Assembly: GCA_026169375.1 (NCBI GenBank)
Contig: JAPFCR010000032.1
Coordinates: 24,266 to 88,265, forward strand
Length of the DNA stretch: 64,000 nucleotides
Reading direction: 5' to 3'
Origin: Sporosarcina sp.
GTDB taxonomy: Bacteria; Bacillota; Bacilli; Bacillales_A; Planococcaceae
Shown here: positions 12,411-20,810 of the stretch, piece after piece
How positions within the stretch are numbered: the stretch's first letter is position 1
Layout of the letters: each line of letters starts with the position of its first letter
Notes under the pieces: generated by a model
The model's database searches: none
What the model was told of the DNA's origin: nothing
Seen by the model: only the letters and a program-made list of their open reading frames with translations
Translations under genes and position numbers: made by a program

Positions 12411-14768
12411 CTACTCAGTAACTAACTTTAATATGTGCCCATCTTCTATTTTCCCAACTAAAACAGACTCATAAAAATGCCCATCCACCCAATCATCGAC
12501 TGCACTATGATACCACTTTGATTTTATATGACCGCTCTGACTTGGCGCAACAATCTGGTGAGTTGAAGATAAATCTTCCAGATCAGCAACAAATCGCCAC
12601 GGCGCACCGTGGTTTACTGTTCCATCCTTTTTAAAAGCAGCCGCTTGCACTGTAATATTTGATCCACCAAGCTCTCGTTTTTCCGGCTCCAAAAACTTTT
12701 CAAAAATTGCAGATGCACTTGATAGTGGATGCGGAAAAGTCACTTGGTGATAGTCTCCCCAACGCCATTTACTTATATCTTCTCCAAAGGTTGCCATCGT
12801 ATTTTCAACTGATTGTTCAAAAGCATCGAAAACCCATTCATCAATTCCGCCGTATGCACTTACCCATTCTCCTGGATTTTTTGCATAGCCATCTCTAAGC
12901 ATCTGATCTGTAATCTGTCCTTTTCCAGGCATCATTGCATAGACATCCTTTGGTATTTCATCAGCAAACATGGTCGTTGGCAACTGTTTAATCCACTTAT
13001 GGAAAATTAACGGCGCTGCCTCGTCGACTTCGTCAAACTGGTTCCAATCCTCTAAAACAGTCATAAACGCTTCATATTTCCCCTCTGAATCTTTCACTTG
13101 AACTGAACGGATCATATTCGGTAAAAATTCCCGTGCATATAAGTTTTTCTGATCCATTTGTAATGCCATCATATCATCAGCGGTAAACGCATCGCCTGTT
13201 TCCAACACTTCCGCAATTCTTTCATATCGATAAGGTTGTGCCCAAAACTTCGTAATATGGTACGGGTATTCATCCCCAACAACTTCATTATTCGCCGTGG
13301 CAATAAACCCTTCTTTGGGATTCACAACGCGCGGAAGTTCGTCATAGGGAACATATCCTTCCCAACCATATTCAGAAGAATCTCCAGGTACGGGAAGTTG
13401 GCCATCCCCTTTTTTACGAAGTGGAATACGTCCATTCGCTTTATACGCTATCGTTCCGTCTTTTGAAGCAAACACAAAGCTTTGCGCAGGTGCATGGAAA
13501 TCTTCTAACCCTTTCTCAAAACCTTGCCAATCTGTTGCTTTGTTTATATTTAAAATTGCTTCTAACTCTTTTGTCGGCTCAAGTGCAGTCCATTGCATAG
13601 AAAACAGTGCATCTGGATCTTCCTCTTTATAAAGAATGTCTGAAACAATCGGTCCGTGACGCGTCACAACGACTTCAAACGGAATGTCTTCCCCGTCTTT
13701 CACATGAATCGTCTCATCTCTTACTTGGGCTTTCTCCCACTTCCCATCATACAAAAACTCTGCAGGATCATCTGGATTCGGTTGTTCAATATATAAATCT
13801 TGCACATCTGGACCTACATTCGTCACACCCCAAGCGATCTCTTCGTTATGCCCTAAAATAATGCCTGGCACTCCCGCAAAAATCACACCTCCAACATTTT
13901 GTTCAGGCGATTGTAAGTGCATCTGATACCAAATCGAAGGGGTATTTAACCCAAGATGTGGATCATCAGCTAGTAATGGGAAACCGCTTTTTGTTTTCTC
14001 CCCGGCAACTACCCAGTTGTTACTTCCATTGAATTCAGGCGGCAATAAACTAGCATCAAATCTTCCTGCAACTTGAACAGGCGTCTTTAAGTTTGCCTCA
14101 ATAATAGAAGGTGAATTATCAGGGTATTCAATAAATAATTCTTTTGCTTTTTCTTCTTCAAAATGATTTAGCGCCCAGTGTCTTACCGCAAGCGTATCCC
14201 AATGCCCACCTAAGTCATAAGCCATGAACTTTCCAATCGTCAGCGAATCTATCGCTGTCCACGGTTCGGGTGTATAGCCTAATAGTTTAAATTCATAAGG
14301 CAGTTTACTAGATGCGGTTGCTTCTTCAATAAACGCATTCACACCTTCAGAAAACAAATCAAGTACTTCTTTGGCTTCAGTCCCGTATCCCTCGTAAGAA
14401 TCTTCTGCGGCGGCTCGTAAACTAAACGTCCGGAAATGTTTATCCGTATCCACTGCAGCTTCTCCAACAACTTCTGCAAGCCGACCGCTCGCTTGCCTTC
14501 GCGACATATCCATTTGAAAAATTCGGTCCTGCGCTTGCACATATCCTTGTGCCCTATAAAGATCAGCATCCGATCCCGCATCGATATGCGGGATGCCGTA
14601 TTCATCACGCGTCACAATGACTTCCGCATCTAAAATGGGTACCTTCACCTCTCCTTCGATAACTGGCTTTGATTTTCCAATATACATATTCAAAAAGACG
14701 ACTGCACAAATGAGCAAAACGCCAAGTACACCGACTCCCCATAATAAACCTTTCACCCAACGATTCAT
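12411..14768 (-). CDS. Penicillin acylase family (S45 Ntn-hydrolase), N-terminal membrane anchor
   Basis: RDEYGIPHI, AQGYVQAQDR and beta-subunit start SNNWVV; DPHL motif. Confidence 0.92.
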   Translation of the reverse strand: MNRWVKGLLWGVGVLGVLLICAVVFLNMYIGKSKPVIEGEVKVPILDAEVIVTRDEYGIPHIDAGSDADLYRAQGYVQAQDRIFQMDMSRRQASGRLAEVVGEAAVDTDKHFRTFSLRAAAEDSYEGYGTEAKEVLDLFSEGVNAFIEEATASSKLPYEFKLLGYTPEPWTAIDSLTIGKFMAYDLGGHWDTLAVRHWALNHFEEEKAKELFIEYPDNSPSIIEANLKTPVQVAGRFDASLLPPEFNGSNNWVVAGEKTKSGFPLLADDPHLGLNTPSIWYQMHLQSPEQNVGGVIFAGVPGIILGHNEEIAWGVTNVGPDVQDLYIEQPNPDDPAEFLYDGKWEKAQVRDETIHVKDGEDIPFEVVVTRHGPIVSDILYKEEDPDALFSMQWTALEPTKELEAILNINKATDWQGFEKGLEDFHAPAQSFVFASKDGTIAYKANGRIPLRKKGDGQLPVPGDSSEYGWEGYVPYDELPRVVNPKEGFIATANNEVVGDEYPYHITKFWAQPYRYERIAEVLETGDAFTADDMMALQMDQKNLYAREFLPNMIRSVQVKDSEGKYEAFMTVLEDWNQFDEVDEAAPLIFHKWIKQLPTTMFADEIPKDVYAMMPGKGQITDQMLRDGYAKNPGEWVSAYGGIDEWVFDAFEQSVENTMATFGEDISKWRWGDYHQVTFPHPLSSASAIFEKFLEPEKRELGGSNITVQAAAFKKDGTVNHGAPWRFVADLEDLSSTHQIVAPSQSGHIKSKWYHSAVDDWVDGHFYESVLVGKIEDGHILKLVTE

Positions 14769-14839
14769 AAAACCCCTCCTATCATTCTCACTATTCTATC
14801 AACCTCTGTTAAATTCCTTTTTCATCTAAATTTCACGAT

Positions 14840-14875
14840 AAAAAAAGATGCAAACCAATTTTGATTTGCATCTTT
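14840..14875 (-). terminator. Intrinsic terminator downstream of hemH
   Basis: AAAGATGCAAA...TTTGCATCTTT with A-tract (U-tract on minus strand). Confidence 0.75.
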
Positions 14876-14902
14876 ACTATATGAAATAATACTGTTTTCA
14901 AT

Positions 14903-15835
14903 TTATAGTTGATTCAGGACAACCTTTGCTAATGTTTCGATAAATAACGGGTCTGTATTTGGCATTTTTGGACGGTAATAATTTGCGCCCACTTCATCAC
15001 AGACAACTTTACATTCATAATCATTGTCATACAACACTTCTAAATGATCGGAAACAAAGCCAACTGGTGTATAGACGAAGCTTTCATAGCCTTTTTCAGC
15101 ATGTAAATCACGTGTTAAATCTTGTACATCTGGACCTAACCACGGATCTGGTGTATTACCTTCACTTTGCCATCCAATCTCATATTGAGTAATGCCAGCT
15201 CCTTTAGCAATCAGCCTTGCCGTTTCAGCGAGTTGTTCAGGGTATGGGTCGTTGTCTTGTAAAATCTTTTCAGGAAGACTATGAGCCGATACGATTAAGA
15301 CAGCTTTTTTTCGCTCTTCTTCTGACATGGTTGCATAGGTTTCTTTAATATTATTAACCCAAAACTCAATGAATCCAGGGGCATCGTACCAATCTTCGAC
15401 TGAATAAAGTTTAATGCCGTATTGATCAGCGCTTTCTTTCGCTCGACTGTTATATCCTTTAATACTAAAAGTAGAATAATGCGGTGCTAACACTAATGTT
15501 ACTGCTTCTGTAATGCCCTTTTCATCCATTTCTGCAACCGCATCTTCGATAAATGGATGAATATGTCTTAAACCGATAAATAGTTCAAACTCATACGTGT
15601 CTTGCATGTCATTCAATTTCTCAGTAATGGCATTTGCTTGCTCTTCTGTAATACGCGCTAACGGGGAGATTCCACCAATTGCATTGTAGCGATCTTTAAG
15701 ATCTTGAAGCGCTTCTTCTGATGGTTTACGCCCGTGACGAATATGTGTGTAATACGGTTCAATATCCTCTTCTTTATACGGTGTTCCGTATGCCATTACT
15801 AGTAAGCCGATTTTTTTCTTATCCATCTTATCCAC
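14903..15835 (-). CDS. hemH: Coproporphyrin ferrochelatase (HemH/CpfC)
   Basis: MAYGTP, SAHSLP (catalytic His), WQSEG and [10 protein letters not shown] motifs. Confidence 0.95.
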
Positions 15836-15898
15836 CTCATAATAGTCGTTTTATTATATTTCTAAGTGAATGTCCTGACCACTTGTATACCAATCTTT

Positions 15899-16708
15899 TT
15901 AATTACGCGGAACATCTTTTATTTTACTCTCTACTAAACCTGTCGCTGTAAATGTTGGAATCCCGTCTTCTTTAATGATATTTGCATGAACCGAAAATAC
16001 TTCTCGAAATAATGCTTCATTCATCACTTCGGTTGGGACCCCACTTTTCACAACTTCTCCGTCTTTCATCACGATTAAATAATCACTATATTTCGCCGCC
16101 TGGTTAATATCGTGTAACACCATCACAATTGTCATATCTAATTTCTCATTTAAATACCGGACTAATTCCATCACTTCTAGCTGATGGGAAATATCTAAAT
16201 AAGTTGTTGGTTCATCTAATAGTAAAATATCTGGAGACTGCACAACAGCCATCGCAATCCATGCTCGCTGACGCTCCCCACCCGATAACTGTTGAATAGG
16301 CTTATCTTCCAAATGCTTTAAATTCGTAATTGAAATTGCCCAATCGATTGTATTAAAATCTTCTGTTGTCAGTTTTTCATACCACTTTCGGTGTGGAAGA
16401 CGTCCATGTGAGATTAGTTCTCGGACAGTTAAATCCAAATCATTATTTTGTACTTGAGAAAGCATCGTCATTTTTTTAGCCAGTGCCTTAGCTTTCATCG
16501 CGGATACTGATTGATCGTTAATCACAACAATTCCTTGATCCGGTTTAATTAAATTGGTCAGTACTTTTAAAAATGTCGACTTCCCTGACCCATTCGGTCC
16601 GATAATACTCGTCACCTGCTGTGGTGGAAACTGTAAAGAAATCCCTTCCAATGAAAACGTTGGTGACTGTTTGTAAACAATATTTTCAGCTGTTAGTTTT
16701 TGTGTCAA
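15899..16708 (-). CDS. Iron-chelate/tetrapyrrole ABC transporter ATP-binding protein
   Basis: Walker A GPNGSGKST, LSGGERQRAW, DEPTTYLD. Confidence 0.92.
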   Translation of the reverse strand: MTQKLTAENIVYKQSPTFSLEGISLQFPPQQVTSIIGPNGSGKSTFLKVLTNLIKPDQGIVVINDQSVSAMKAKALAKKMTMLSQVQNNDLDLTVRELISHGRLPHRKWYEKLTTEDFNTIDWAISITNLKHLEDKPIQQLSGGERQRAWIAMAVVQSPDILLLDEPTTYLDISHQLEVMELVRYLNEKLDMTIVMVLHDINQAAKYSDYLIVMKDGEVVKSGVPTEVMNEALFREVFSVHANIIKEDGIPTFTATGLVESKIKDVPRN

Positions 16709-16724
16709 GATTGATCACCCTTGT

Positions 16725-17705
16725 TTACTCTTTTGCAATGCTTTCTAATTCTTCATGTAAATAATCTAAAGAGTCGATGATTCGAGATCCAGGGTTCGCA
16801 CCGAATAAGTCATTTGGCAAACCAATAAAATGATCTTCTTGTACTGCTTGTATATTTCCCCATGCAGGATTTTGTTCCATTTCTTTTGTAAATGCCGCAA
16901 CCGTTTCTTCATAAGGTCCAGCTGTAATAAAGAAAATGACTTCTGGATCCGCTTCAACAATTTTTTCCATATCTAATTGTGCGTATTGCGGAAACCTTTC
17001 TAGTTTCTCATAGTCTTCTGCGATATTATAACCACCTACTGCATCCAGCATATTTCCTGATAGCGAGTCAGGTAGTGCCACCATCCAGTTTCCTGCAGAA
17101 CCAAAAATAATTAATGTTCTTAGTTTGTCTGCTTCATCTTGGTTAGCTTGGTCTGACGCTTCTTCAATATTTTTTATAAGTTCAGCTGCGTTCTCTTCCT
17201 TTTGTACAAGTTTACCAAGAATTTCAATGGACTCTTTCACTTCATCAATCGAATTGGCACCCATTTGTACTACGCCTATTCCTAACTCCTCTAATGCTGG
17301 AATTACATCCTTATTTAACTGTGGGTGTGCAATCACAACATCTGGTCGTAAACTAGCAATTTTTTCGACATTTACATCGTTCGACGTTCCTACTTCGGGG
17401 ATTTCTTCGATTTCTTCACGCATATTCCCCCGAATCACTGGCCTACCTACAGCCGTTTCACCTAAATCATAAAGTGTATTTAAATCTCCAGCTGTTAATG
17501 AGACAATTCGTTCCGGAGCAGCTTCTAATTCCACTTTATTTCCTTGTAAATCTGTCAGTGAAATCCCGCTATTTTCTTCACTTTCTGATTGCGTTTCATT
17601 TTGATCTGTTTCTTTGTTTTCTTTATTTGCATTGTCATTTCCACAAGCCGCTACGATTAAAAGCAAACTTAACATGAGTAACGTCAATGATAATTTCTTT
17701 TTCAA
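16725..17705 (-). CDS. Class III substrate-binding lipoprotein (IsdE/BtuF-like fold)
   Basis: Lipobox VAAC; PERIVSL, NVEKIASLRPDVVI and MEKIVEADPEVI repeats; C-terminal layout resembles IsdE. Confidence 0.85.
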   Translation of the reverse strand: MKKKLSLTLLMLSLLLIVAACGNDNANKENKETDQNETQSESEENSGISLTDLQGNKVELEAAPERIVSLTAGDLNTLYDLGETAVGRPVIRGNMREEIEEIPEVGTSNDVNVEKIASLRPDVVIAHPQLNKDVIPALEELGIGVVQMGANSIDEVKESIEILGKLVQKEENAAELIKNIEEASDQANQDEADKLRTLIIFGSAGNWMVALPDSLSGNMLDAVGGYNIAEDYEKLERFPQYAQLDMEKIVEADPEVIFFITAGPYEETVAAFTKEMEQNPAWGNIQAVQEDHFIGLPNDLFGANPGSRIIDSLDYLHEELESIAKE

Positions 17706-17722
17706 TTTTCTTTCCTCCCAAA

Positions 17723-18781
17723 TTACATTACTTTTCCTTTTCGTAATAAATATAAAAAGAATGGCGCACCTAATACCGCTAACAAAACACCGACTGGCAA
17801 TTCAATTGGCTCAAACCAACTTCTCGCTGCTGTATCCGCAAATATCACTAAAGCGCCGCCTAATAGAGCAGATGTAGGCAATAAATATTTATAATCATTC
17901 CCAATCAAAAGTCGAACCATATGCGGTACAACTAACCCTACAAACCCTAATAAACCGGCCACACTCACCGCAGCACCTGCTAAGAACGTACTTAACAACA
18001 GTAATAATAAACGATGCTTTTCTACATTATACCCGAGCAACTTTGCTACATCGTCGCCTAAGCGAAGAATATTCACAGACCGCGATGCAAAAAGGGATAA
18101 AACAAGTCCAATCACTGCATAAGGAAGAATGATTTTTAAATGTGGCCAACTTTTCCCACTAAGACCGCCCATTAACCAAGACAAAACAGTTTGTACTTTA
18201 TCGCTATATACAATCATAACGCCAGACGTAATGGCGCCTAAAAATGTATTAATGGCTACCCCCGCAAGTATTAACCGTAAAGGTGCCACACCACCATTCC
18301 ACGCCAATCCATAGACAAGAGCTGCTGCTATAAAAGCACCGATGAATGCACCGATTGGAACAAGCCCAGTATAAGCAGGAAAGATAAGCATTGTAGAAAC
18401 AGCGACTAATCCTGCACCAGAAGAAACTCCGATAATCCCTGGATCTGCTAATGGATTACGCATGATTCCTTGTAAGATTCCGCCAGAAACCGCAAGACAC
18501 ATTCCTACTAACAGACCTGTCAATAGTCGTGGTAAGCGTAAATTCCAAACAATTTGGTGCTCTATCGTCCCTTCTTCTCCAAAAATGCCATTAAGTACTT
18601 CACTCACAGTGAGCGTGACAGATCCCGTTGCAAGTCCATAAATGAGCGATATAATCACTAGCAAAAAGCAACCGACTAAAAGGAATATTCTATTTCTTCC
18701 AACCGAATCACTTTTAGCGTCTTCACCTTTTGCATGTTCATCGATCAGATCCACCTCATTCTTTTTGTCAAACGTTTTCAT
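17723..18781 (-). CDS. FecCD-family ABC permease
   Basis: LRLPR, RNPLADPGIIG and GFVGLVVPH motifs; likely start MKTF behind GGAGG (track start 18796). Confidence 0.92.
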   Translation of the reverse strand: MKTFDKKNEVDLIDEHAKGEDAKSDSVGRNRIFLLVGCFLLVIISLIYGLATGSVTLTVSEVLNGIFGEEGTIEHQIVWNLRLPRLLTGLLVGMCLAVSGGILQGIMRNPLADPGIIGVSSGAGLVAVSTMLIFPAYTGLVPIGAFIGAFIAAALVYGLAWNGGVAPLRLILAGVAINTFLGAITSGVMIVYSDKVQTVLSWLMGGLSGKSWPHLKIILPYAVIGLVLSLFASRSVNILRLGDDVAKLLGYNVEKHRLLLLLLSTFLAGAAVSVAGLLGFVGLVVPHMVRLLIGNDYKYLLPTSALLGGALVIFADTAARSWFEPIELPVGVLLAVLGAPFFLYLLRKGKVM

Positions 18782-18957
18782 ACATATATCCTCCACCCAA
18801 AACTTCTTCCCTTTTCATCAGAAGGAGCTTTGGTATTACTACTGACTTCTTATCATACTTTGTACTCATTCAATAATCCTATTCTTTAGAATCCTCTAAT
18901 CAGCGCATTTTTTCCTTCTCTATACAAAATCCTTACGCCTACGATTGCTTGAATTTT

Positions 18958-19704
18958 TCATTCATTCTCAAAAAATGATTCAAGCGCTTCTTTTGATAAA
19001 TAATGCCCAACGTAAAACGGACCATAATCCGTGTACTTAGCATGCACCTCATCAAACCGACTATCAGACAGCAGTTTTTTAAATTGCATTGGATCATCAC
19101 AAAATAAAGAGACGCCCCATTCATAGTCATCAAAGCCAATCGATCCGGTGACTATTCTCTTCACATCTTTTGAGTAAGGTTTGACGGTGTCAATATGATC
19201 ATACATTATACGTCCACGTTCTGCCTTAGAGAGAGCATACCAGTTATTCACTTCTCCTCTTTGCTTACGCATCGGATAAAAACATATATGCGCCTCTTTT
19301 GGAATTTCCGGATACAACTTTGCACGCATCACTGGGTCTTCATAAGGATTTGTCTCAAGTTTCGTATATGTACTTTTTTCAATGACTGATACATATGAAT
19401 AGGCTGGTTTCGTAAAATGCGCAAGCGCAGTTTTATTCCAAGCTGTTTCTAACTGATTTAACTCTTTCATTGTTGGGCGTAAAAACATCATAAGAAAATC
19501 TGCTTTCTGGCCAAGTATCGAATAAATCGCATGACTTCCTTCTTCACGATCTTCAGTCCTTTGCCAACCGTCAATCATATCATAAAGTTCTTTAAGCGCT
19601 GCCAAACGATGATCTTCTGAAGCACATGCCCACTTTTCCCAATCAAAAGTACGAAAATCATGTAAAGCGTACCACCCGTCGAACGTTTCTACTTTTCCTG
19701 ACAT
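18958..19704 (-). CDS. ChdC/HemQ-like heme protein, divergent paralog with distal Arg (Cld/ChdC/DyP superfamily)
   Basis: DGWYALHDFR, GQKADF, CFYPM, NNWY and GFDDYEWGV motifs; Tyr143, Lys147, His170 present; Arg183 where ChdC has Gln. Confidence 0.85.
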   Translation of the reverse strand: MSGKVETFDGWYALHDFRTFDWEKWACASEDHRLAALKELYDMIDGWQRTEDREEGSHAIYSILGQKADFLMMFLRPTMKELNQLETAWNKTALAHFTKPAYSYVSVIEKSTYTKLETNPYEDPVMRAKLYPEIPKEAHICFYPMRKQRGEVNNWYALSKAERGRIMYDHIDTVKPYSKDVKRIVTGSIGFDDYEWGVSLFCDDPMQFKKLLSDSRFDEVHAKYTDYGPFYVGHYLSKEALESFFENE

Positions 19705-20060
19705 TTCAAGTATTCCTCCCTTTCTCTAATTCATTTTTTCCTTTTGGTTTTTATTAAGCTATTCCACGCCTGTTTTCAGTAAGACAGGCGCGTGAATAAC
19801 TAAATAACAATCCACGACCCGGCACTGATTCAAAAACAATTGAGTATCTTTCTCCAAAATGCCATAACTTTTATTATACTCCATTAATTGCGTTGTTTCT
19901 TTGAATTTATCGACATTTTTGTGACTTGTTATGTTAATGATAATATTCTCTTTAGGACCAAATTCGATAATATTGTGAAGTTCACTTCAAAAATATTAAT
20001 TTATGCTATAGTATTTTAAGATATATTAAAATACACACAACAAGGAGAGATTAATTCATC

Positions 20061-20810
20061 ATGGCAGAAGCTGTTGAAACAATGGATGGTTGGTATGTAT
20101 TACACGATTTACGAAAAGTCGATTGGACGAAGTGGAATAAGGCATCTGTAGAAGAAAGAAATGCTGCATTAAAACAATTCAAAGAGCATTATCTTGCATG
20201 GGATGAAAACGAGAAAAAAGAGGAAGGATCCTTTGGTATCTTTCATATTGTTGGCCAAAAAGCCGATCTTATGTTTACACTTTTAAGACCGACATTAGAA
20301 GAAATTCTCGATGCAGAAACTGCATTAAATAAATCTGCTTTAGCAGAGTTTCTGATTCCTACTGACTCTTATATGTCTGTTGTCGAGTTGTCAAAATATC
20401 GTCCCGACCAAGACGGCATAGACCCAGAAACATTACCTGAAACTCAAAAAAGACTTAAACCAATACTTGAAAAATGGGAGTATGTCTCTTTTTATCCGAT
20501 GAGTCGAAAGCGCGAGGGCGAAGACAATTGGTATACATTAGAAAAGAGTAAACGTGGAAAATTATTATATGAACATAGCATTACTGGAAGAAAATATACC
20601 GGAGAAGTGAAGCAAATTATTACAGGGTCAACTGGTTTCGATGAGTGGGAATGGGGCGTTACATTATTTGCCCATGATTACTTACAGTTGAAGAAAATCG
20701 TTTATGAAATGCGCTATGATACGGCGACTGCACGATATGGCCTATTTGGTGACTTCTACACTGGAAAGACACTCACATTTGAAACACTCGAAGAAATGAT
20801 GCACGTCTAA
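20061..20810 (+). CDS. hemQ: Coproheme decarboxylase (ChdC/HemQ) homolog
   Basis: DGWYVLHD, SFYPM, DNWY, HSITGRKY, VKQIITGS and VYEMRYD motifs; RBS AAGGAG. Confidence 0.85.
   Translation: MAEAVETMDGWYVLHDLRKVDWTKWNKASVEERNAALKQFKEHYLAWDENEKKEEGSFGIFHIVGQKADLMFTLLRPTLEEILDAETALNKSALAEFLIPTDSYMSVVELSKYRPDQDGIDPETLPETQKRLKPILEKWEYVSFYPMSRKREGEDNWYTLEKSKRGKLLYEHSITGRKYTGEVKQIITGSTGFDEWEWGVTLFAHDYLQLKKIVYEMRYDTATARYGLFGDFYTGKTLTFETLEEMMHV

Follow-up and report, generated by a model that had tools for sequence, protein, structure and literature searches.

A clade of ChdC-family proteins with arginine at the distal position and predicted Fnr-type promoters

In a stretch of DNA from a genome labelled Sporosarcina sp. 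(64,000 nucleotides of contig JAPFCR010000032.1; hereafter the window), the gene P0001 encodes a paralog of coproheme decarboxylase (ChdC) that carries an arginine at the distal position, where the ChdCs of Firmicutes have a glutamine. P0001 is, with near certainty, a member of a clade of such Arg-type proteins, which apparently forms an undescribed branch of the ChdC family. In nearly all other genomes, the Arg-type gene is preceded by a predicted class II Fnr-type promoter, often together with a Fur box, and the clade is therefore read as a low-oxygen isozyme (low-iron in Neobacillus). Taken as a whole, we lean cautiously towards an isozyme of coproheme decarboxylase for low oxygen, in which the distal Arg alters the handling of the oxidant, with the window copy being co-expressed with an ATP-binding cassette (ABC) importer and the ferrochelatase CpfC. 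ChdC, which completes heme synthesis in Gram-positive bacteria, is a well-studied enzyme and a candidate antibiotic target.

Sequence and modelled fold of P0001

The gene and the two codons that define the Arg type are located as follows.

18958..19704, minus strand: Arg-type ChdC paralog P0001, intact open reading frame of 248 residues (PF06778, NF008913; member of the Arg clade)
19195..19197, minus strand: codon CAT of the proximal His170
19156..19158, minus strand: codon AGA of the distal Arg183

An earlier note, made by a model from the sequence alone, had proposed P0001 as a ChdC-like paralog with a distal Arg of the chlorite dismutase (Cld) type, and both His170 and Arg183 with its AGA codon were confirmed on the DNA and on the translation. 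The minus strand from 19197 to 19141, running from cat att gac through aag aga ata to acc gga tcg, translates as HIDTVKPYSKDVKRIVTGS. P0001 matches the Pfam family Chlor_dismutase (PF06778) at 1.2e-56 and the NCBIfam model NF008913 (hydrogen peroxide-dependent heme synthase) with 316.1 bits, above the curated equivalog cut-off of 253.

The alignment register of Arg183 was the same with three programs. BLASTP pairs it with Gln184 of the neighbouring canonical ChdC, P0002, without gaps (KDVKRIVTGS/GEVKQIITGS). HMMER, run against HemQ of Geobacillus stearothermophilus (1t0t/5t2k) and ChdC of Listeria monocytogenes (Lm; 6fxj), places it on Lm Q187, ungapped from the proximal His, and a MAFFT alignment of 121 homologues agrees. 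Arg183 thus stands at the distal position, 13 residues after His170, and the misplacement that a proper alignment might have revealed was not seen. Lm Q187 is known to align with the catalytic Arg of Clds, to lie 5.2 Å from the iron and to form a hydrogen bond with a propionate (PMC5157759).

The residues H170, Y143, M145 and K147 of P0001 align with Lm H174, Y147, M149 and K151. The radical Tyr143 and Lys147, which the note had listed as retained, occur in 121/121 and 120/121 homologues of the MAFFT alignment, respectively, and Met145 and Tyr113 are present in P0001 as well. The two Lys residues said to replace Arg are both found in P0001: K129 stands where Gln-type enzymes have Arg, while at position 175 the 121 sequences divide into 51 with Lys and 70 with Arg. 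The replacement of a conserved Ser by His221 also holds, with Ser in 119 sequences, Thr in one and His in P0001 alone.

In the AlphaFold model (predicted local distance difference test score 83), P0001 forms a two-domain, ferredoxin-like α+β barrel subunit with R183 in the strand 181–187. The best fold match is GsHemQ (5t2k) with a template modelling (TM) score of 0.88–0.90, and Foldseek comparison with 5t2k, 1t0t, 6fxj and 5loq gave E values of 1e-28 to 4e-31 and TM scores of 0.88–0.91. Overall, the match to ChdC structures (E of 1e-83, TM of 0.9, 50% identity) is far stronger than that to Clds (Nitrospira defluvii NdCld; E of 5e-5 with phmmer, TM of 0.73, 20% identity). By sequence and modelled fold, P0001 is a Firmicute ChdC and not a Cld. 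The structure prediction that the note had proposed as a check puts the Firmicute ChdC fold on top, and the assignment as a ChdC-like paralog stands on NF008913 and on the fold, whereas the suggested Cld-like identity does not, since Tyr143 is kept and the ChdC matches are much the stronger.

In comparison with the Firmicute (clade 1) ChdC/HemQ proteins of L. monocytogenes (5LOQ, 6FXJ), G. stearothermophilus (1T0T, 5T2K) and Staphylococcus aureus, P0001 is similar in length and fold at 43–51% identity and shares the proximal His, the radical Tyr, both the Met and the Lys of YPMxK, and Tyr113. It differs in the distal Gln (Lm Q187), which is Arg, in the channel-entrance Arg (Lm R133), which is Lys, in the Gly after the proximal His, which is Ile, and in the Leu before the gating loop, which is Lys. 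The Clds, such as NdCld (R173/H160) and Dechloromonas DaCld (R183/H170), belong to the same superfamily and have the same His-Arg spacing on the distal strand, but use heme b as the cofactor and have Ile where the catalytic Tyr of ChdC stands (PMC7611857). Conversely, ChdCs have been described as Cld-like proteins without the Arg (PMC5157759, PMC7611857, PMC4420033). In Firmicute ChdC there is no distal base, the reaction with H2O2 is slow, and full conservation of Q187 among Firmicutes has been stated (PMC5157759). A precedent for a gained polar distal residue is the actinobacterial ChdC of Corynebacterium diphtheriae and Streptomyces coelicolor, in which a distal His acts as base. According to PMC7611857 and a title cited in PMC13564367, this distal residue speeds Compound I formation with H2O2. 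In contrast to Arg183, this His is borne by a different element, and the Gln/Arg position is occupied by Ala; the actinobacterial enzyme belongs to another clade and is the sole housekeeping enzyme without a paralog.

Phylogeny and conservation of the Arg-type clade

Among the 121 best database matches of P0001, 77 have Arg at the distal position in the MAFFT alignment, together with Lys129 and an HI.T motif instead of HG. In a maximum-likelihood tree, these Arg sequences form one clade with a Shimodaira–Hasegawa-like approximate likelihood ratio test (SH-aLRT) value of 100. The clade has two branches, one of Neobacillus and one of Virgibacillus, Lentibacillus, Ornithinibacillus, Cerasibacillus, Pseudogracilibacillus and Tigheibacillus; P0001 adjoins metagenome-assembled genomes of Pseudogracilibacillus at 69% identity. 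When distant ChdCs were added to the tree, the Arg clade remained monophyletic (SH-aLRT 97) and sister to the sampled Gln-type clade of Bacillaceae. All outgroup ChdCs have Gln, and the Arg is therefore a derived state that, unlike the Arg of Clds, arose secondarily inside ChdC. Furthermore, the representatives of 1.84 billion clusters at 50% identity were searched, and among the best 150 of them the Tyr-His-Arg combination was confined to fragments of the Arg clade.

The clade is deep, with protein identities down to 52–57% and the two branches approximately 57% identical to each other, and at the same time well conserved: its 77 sequences have 44 invariant columns, including Y143, K147, H170 and R183, and a mean column identity of 67%. 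A comparison of 103 Arg-clade with 147 Gln-type sequences yielded eleven discriminating positions, with Arg183 present in all 103. These are (Arg type/Gln type) 110 K/L, 129 K/R, 134 I/L, 146 S/D, 148 L/R, 151 E/G, 171 I/G, 183 R/Q, 215 T/M, 226 I/E and 232 I/V.

That the clade is conserved and evolves separately agrees with a specialised or new role, and the idea of a neofunctionalised paralog is compatible with the phylogeny, in which the Arg183 proteins are a monophyletic group of ChdCs. The treatment of P0001 as a single odd protein has to be given up, because it belongs to a clade in which most members have an Fnr-type box, and only His221 is private to it. A literature search found no mention of the Arg-type clade, and the mechanism papers call the distal Gln fully conserved in Firmicutes. 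A search of public sequencing runs, which was not specific to RNA, gave partial DNA matches in mouse-gut and dust metagenomes and listed no RNA run.

Predicted promoters of Arg-type genes

The 350–400 nt before each gene were scanned for known Bacillus operator motifs, and a box was called at no more than one mismatch. A TGTGA-N6-TCACA box was found 57–106 nt before the ATG in all 24 Arg-type genes outside the window with enough upstream sequence, 11 of these boxes being perfect, compared with none of 96 Gln-type and none of five other ChdC genes. Of seven additional Arg-type genes used as a hold-out set, five had a clear box, one a degenerate site and one no box, so that 29 of 31 Arg-type genes outside the window carry the box over both sets. 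A -10 element, often TG-extended, follows at a distance of 21–23 nt, which places the box centre near -41.5, in the geometry of class II activation by Fnr. TGTGA-N6-TCACA is the Fnr consensus of Bacillus and Paenibacillus, for which binding was observed in electrophoretic mobility shift assays on the nar, nrdDG, pfl and hemN promoters (bioRxiv 10.1101/2020.01.03.894683). From these predicted sites, we infer that the Arg-type genes are bound by Fnr and induced at low oxygen.

The same box was found before the AhbD-like (TIGR04053) genes of five Neobacillus genomes and of four out of five Virgibacillus-like ones. At the AhbD-like genes of loci L185–L187, L189–L191 and L193–L195, it lies 57–115 nt upstream. 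At the Arg-type loci of Neobacillus (L070–L079), a near-perfect Fur box with one mismatch, TGAAAATNATTATCA, is additionally present approximately 50–70 nt before the ATG, where it overlaps the -10 element downstream of the Fnr-type box. The combination of both boxes suggests joint control by oxygen and iron in this genus.

Co-occurrence with Gln-type ChdC and AhbD-like enzymes

The Arg type is always a second copy, and its Fnr-type box, found in most genomes, is absent from the housekeeping chdC genes. A second ChdC locus is present in 29/29 Arg-type genomes, one of which (G141) has it in a frameshifted form, and each of the 21 Arg-type isolate genomes contains at least one further ChdC-family gene. 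Likewise, the Arg type occurs in 18 of the 151 genomes sampled from the Virgibacillus-like family, and 18/18 of these have a second ChdC match; no genome with the Arg type alone was found among the Arg-type genomes examined. The frameshifted case is Tigheibacillus jepli (G141, C1:612181-612911, locus L181), where the Gln-type chdC is split near residue 122 and the Arg-type gene is unbroken. The split may reflect a sequencing error, or the genome may rely on the Arg type.

AhbD/TIGR04053 of Gram-positive bacteria catalyses the same reaction, from coproheme to heme b, and is predicted to be co-regulated with Arg-type ChdC in the same genomes. It is nevertheless unrelated to ChdC in fold and chemistry, being an oxygen-independent radical S-adenosylmethionine (SAM) enzyme with several 4Fe-4S clusters. 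Mutual exclusion of Arg-type ChdC and the AhbD-like enzyme was considered and rejected, as 19 of 21 Arg-type genomes have both.

No conserved neighbours of the Arg-type gene were found in 26 species-representative loci, where the gene stands alone. Virgibacillus and Lentibacillus have it immediately ahead of an apparent rRNA operon (an open reading frame with a 23S_rRNA_IVP match, L004:9257-14000) or of a contig end, and in several draft assemblies (L057, L060, L062–L064, L066 and L077) the contig breaks 0.3–2 kb after it.

Proposed function of the Arg-type clade

In the proposed mechanism, the distal Gln would have been replaced by Arg on the stem of the clade, together with fixed changes around the porphyrin pocket (K110, K129, I134, S146, L148, E151, I171 and T215). 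Coproheme would be bound on His170, and its propionates 2 and 4 would be oxidatively decarboxylated through the Tyr143 radical with the assistance of Lys147 and Met145. The distal guanidinium, K110, K129 and the loss of R148 would change oxidant binding and O–O cleavage. One possibility is that the guanidinium exerts a 'pull' effect, as in peroxidases and dye-decolourising peroxidases, and makes better use of scarce H2O2; alternatively, an anionic oxidant might be used. The propionate that is normally held by Gln187 may also be handled differently.

In this pathway, CgoX makes the H2O2 that ChdC consumes (PMC10965808). The Arg clade would serve under a scarcity of oxygen and thus of the H2O2 derived from CgoX, alongside the Gln-type housekeeping ChdC and the AhbD-like heme synthase of the radical-SAM type. 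At promoters with a Fur box, it may spare the iron-costly radical-SAM enzyme. In the genome of the window, P0001 is probably co-expressed with the importer and with CpfC, the iron-inserting enzyme of heme synthesis, and is transcribed divergently from the Gln-type chdC.

P0001 retains every residue that decarboxylation is known to require, and decarboxylase chemistry of P0001 and its clade is somewhat more likely than not; the chances of a low-oxygen role, as judged from the predicted promoters, seem evenly balanced. A further-reaching proposal, in which the clade is a dedicated low-oxygen, cluster-free (iron-sparing) decarboxylase that is switched on by Fnr, released by Fur in Neobacillus and driven by trace peroxide or by an oxidant other than H2O2, is speculative and rather unlikely.

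Several points weigh against the function proposed here. The low-oxygen role is deduced from a predicted binding site, and related genomes are non-independent observations, although its two branches diverged deeply. Two Arg-type genes (G210 and G225) and the window copy have no good Fnr-type box. An Arg-type ChdC is linked to the ABC importer and to hemH in the genome of the window alone, the 26 other Arg-type loci having no such neighbours. P0001 departs from 10 of the 104 positions conserved in the clade, compared with a clade median of 2, and may accordingly differ in activity from the other members. Finally, the AhbD-like enzyme is already present in 19/21 Arg-type genomes, so that the need for another enzyme in anaerobic conditions is not obvious.

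If the low-oxygen role were true, the Arg type would be a third way for Bacillaceae to finish heme when oxygen is scarce, beside the housekeeping ChdC and AhbD. Decarboxylation of coproheme without O2 or H2O2 in these bacteria has been regarded as an open question or assigned to AhbD (PMC10965808, PMC13564367), and the predicted Fnr control that the Arg type has in common with the AhbD-like synthase bears on this gap in the coproporphyrin-dependent pathway. In addition, the naturally conserved exchange of Gln for Arg offers a ready-made experiment on the lack of a distal catalytic residue, to which the mechanism papers attribute the slow reaction with H2O2.

Genomic context of P0001 and alternative readings

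The genes following P0001 on the minus strand, and those on its other side, are listed below.

17723..18796, minus strand: FecCD-family ABC permease (PF01032, 1.4e-101)
16725..17705, minus strand: IsdE-like lipoprotein substrate-binding protein (PF01497; TIGR03659 IsdE with 151 bits, below the cut-off of 299)
15899..16708, minus strand: ABC ATPase (PF00005)
14903..15835, minus strand: ferrochelatase CpfC/HemH (NF009095, 552 bits)
14844..14875, minus strand: intrinsic terminator after hemH, a 14-bp stem followed by a T run
12411..14768: penicillin-amidase-family (Ntn hydrolase) gene after the hemH terminator, in the same position in the closest related contig (L182)
19705..20060: 356-nt intergenic region from which the two ChdC genes diverge, with no good Fnr, Fur or PerR box
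20061..20810, plus strand: Gln-type ChdC P0002, 249 residues, 45% identical to P0001 and divergent from it

Between the stop of P0001 (18958) and the start of the permease, no terminator-like site was found, and the only strong one follows hemH. The best PDB matches of the binding protein are the heme binders IsdE (2q8p) and Lmo2184 (5joq), but Met78 and His229, the axial heme-iron ligands of IsdE, align with Asn and Ala. The ferrochelatase is the single PF00762 match in the genome, which is 90% complete. In the genomes labelled as the same genus or family that were checked, the order hemE-hemH-hemY is kept. Here, hemE and hemY lie 42 nt apart on contig C28 (L037, L038) with no hemH between them, and hemH instead follows the importer.

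This arrangement raises the alternative of a salvage route, in which the importer would take up coproporphyrin III or coproheme, CpfC would insert iron and P0001, specialised for imported porphyrin, would finish the heme. In its favour are the order of chdC-like gene, permease, binding protein, ATPase and hemH, closed by a single terminator, and the lack of the IsdE iron ligands in the binding protein, which would be in keeping with a tetrapyrrole that is free of metal or bound in a different way. On metagenome contigs, orthologous importers, more distant ones with binding proteins of 58% and 51% identity (L183:5895-9970 and L184:5975-9987), have behind them a TIGR04053 radical SAM/SPASM gene, the closest relative of the AhbD heme b synthase, that is, an AhbD-like coproheme decarboxylase, in two otherwise unrelated contexts. 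The importer is thus repeatedly tied to enzymes acting on coproporphyrin or coproheme, and this recurrent link hints at tetrapyrrole salvage. The junction with ChdC is, in contrast, private to this genome: the closest related contig, from a metagenome (binding protein 74%, HemH 86%), has the order importer, hemH and acylase with no ChdC in the 455 nt upstream, and conservation in the spacer before the permease is limited to the ribosome-binding site. Moreover, hemB, hemE and hemY are present in the genome of the window in addition to its sole detected ferrochelatase, so that the operon also serves de novo synthesis, and the ligand of the importer could be an iron chelate or a corrinoid. We therefore consider salvage unlikely.

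A non-catalytic or different heme protein, namely a chaperone or store of heme or coproheme, or a heme b peroxidase, appears improbable. In its favour, the canonical ChdC always co-occurs, so that the Arg type is not needed for the basic step, and the pocket entrance has altered charges (K110, K129, R183 and the loss of R148) that could affect the release or retention of the product. Against this, Tyr143, Lys147 and Met145, which are relevant to decarboxylation only, are strictly conserved across a clade with identities down to 52–57%.

The window copy is atypical within the clade. At up to one mismatch, no Fnr-type box was found in the 64-kb window, and the intergenic region has sites with three mismatches only. 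Among Fur, PerR, Zur, Rex, HssR and Fnr boxes, the best in the intergenic regions of the window have three mismatches; neither the 356-nt intergenic region nor the 161-nt spacer before the permease contains a convincing Fur or PerR site. P0001 has unusual residues at His221, Arg146 and His139 and a long terminal branch of 0.63–0.67. These features, in particular the changed positions, which include the nearly invariant Ser221, and the missing Fnr box, would fit a redundant duplicate that is drifting towards loss in this genome. Such drift is nevertheless very improbable, as the reading frame is intact and preceded by a good ribosome-binding site, and the catalytic residues as well as the invariant clade-signature residues K110, K129, I171 and R183 are all kept. 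The neighbouring P0002 has an even longer branch (approximately 1.0), and fast evolution is therefore a property of the genome rather than of the P0001 gene.

A true Cld that detoxifies chlorite formed by nitrate reductase during anaerobic respiration is hardly credible: the Cld-like His-Arg spacing (PMC7611857) and an Fnr-type box like that of nitrate-respiration genes would agree with it, but P0001 keeps the ChdC Tyr where Clds have Ile and is far closer to ChdC by all measures given above, and the Arg arose inside ChdC.

Placement of the genome and further observations

The labelled kinship of the genome looks inconsistent with its heme biosynthesis proteins. HemE and HemH are 73–76% identical to those of Arg-bearing Virgibacillus-like genomes (G127–G130), compared with 68–71% to genomes labelled as the same genus (G039/G087), and HemY is 49% identical to the latter. 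Each of 120 genomes labelled as the same family has one Gln-type ChdC, which is 49–52% identical to both window proteins. In the tree, both window copies nest with the Arg-bearing Virgibacillus-like group; P0002 falls into the Gln-type clade of these genomes, with Ornithinibacillus gellani as the nearest at 67%, compared with 49% for same-genus genomes. Given these affinities, a transfer into the family is not claimed, and vertical inheritance of both ChdC copies seems at least as likely as horizontal transfer.

P0002 has Arg in place of Lys in the YPMxK motif. The intergenic region contains a GTGAA-N-TTCAC palindrome at approximately 19975–19985, about 75 nt before the start of P0002, and a 7-bp GC-rich hairpin at approximately 19767–19791 on the minus strand, in the presumed leader of P0001. 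Neither corresponds to a known operator or an Rfam match, and an Rfam search of 14700–20200 gave no relevant match. No AhbD-like gene was found in the genome of the window. Elsewhere in this genome, two perfect TGTGA-N6-TCACA boxes lie 23 nt apart (C44:154823-154861, L177) before an operon for a phosphotransferase system EIIC component and a D-2-hydroxyacid dehydrogenase. Fnr of Bacillus subtilis has a C-terminal Cys cluster; the one Crp/Fnr-family regulator of the genome (L171:1489-2193) has an N-terminal Cys/His motif.

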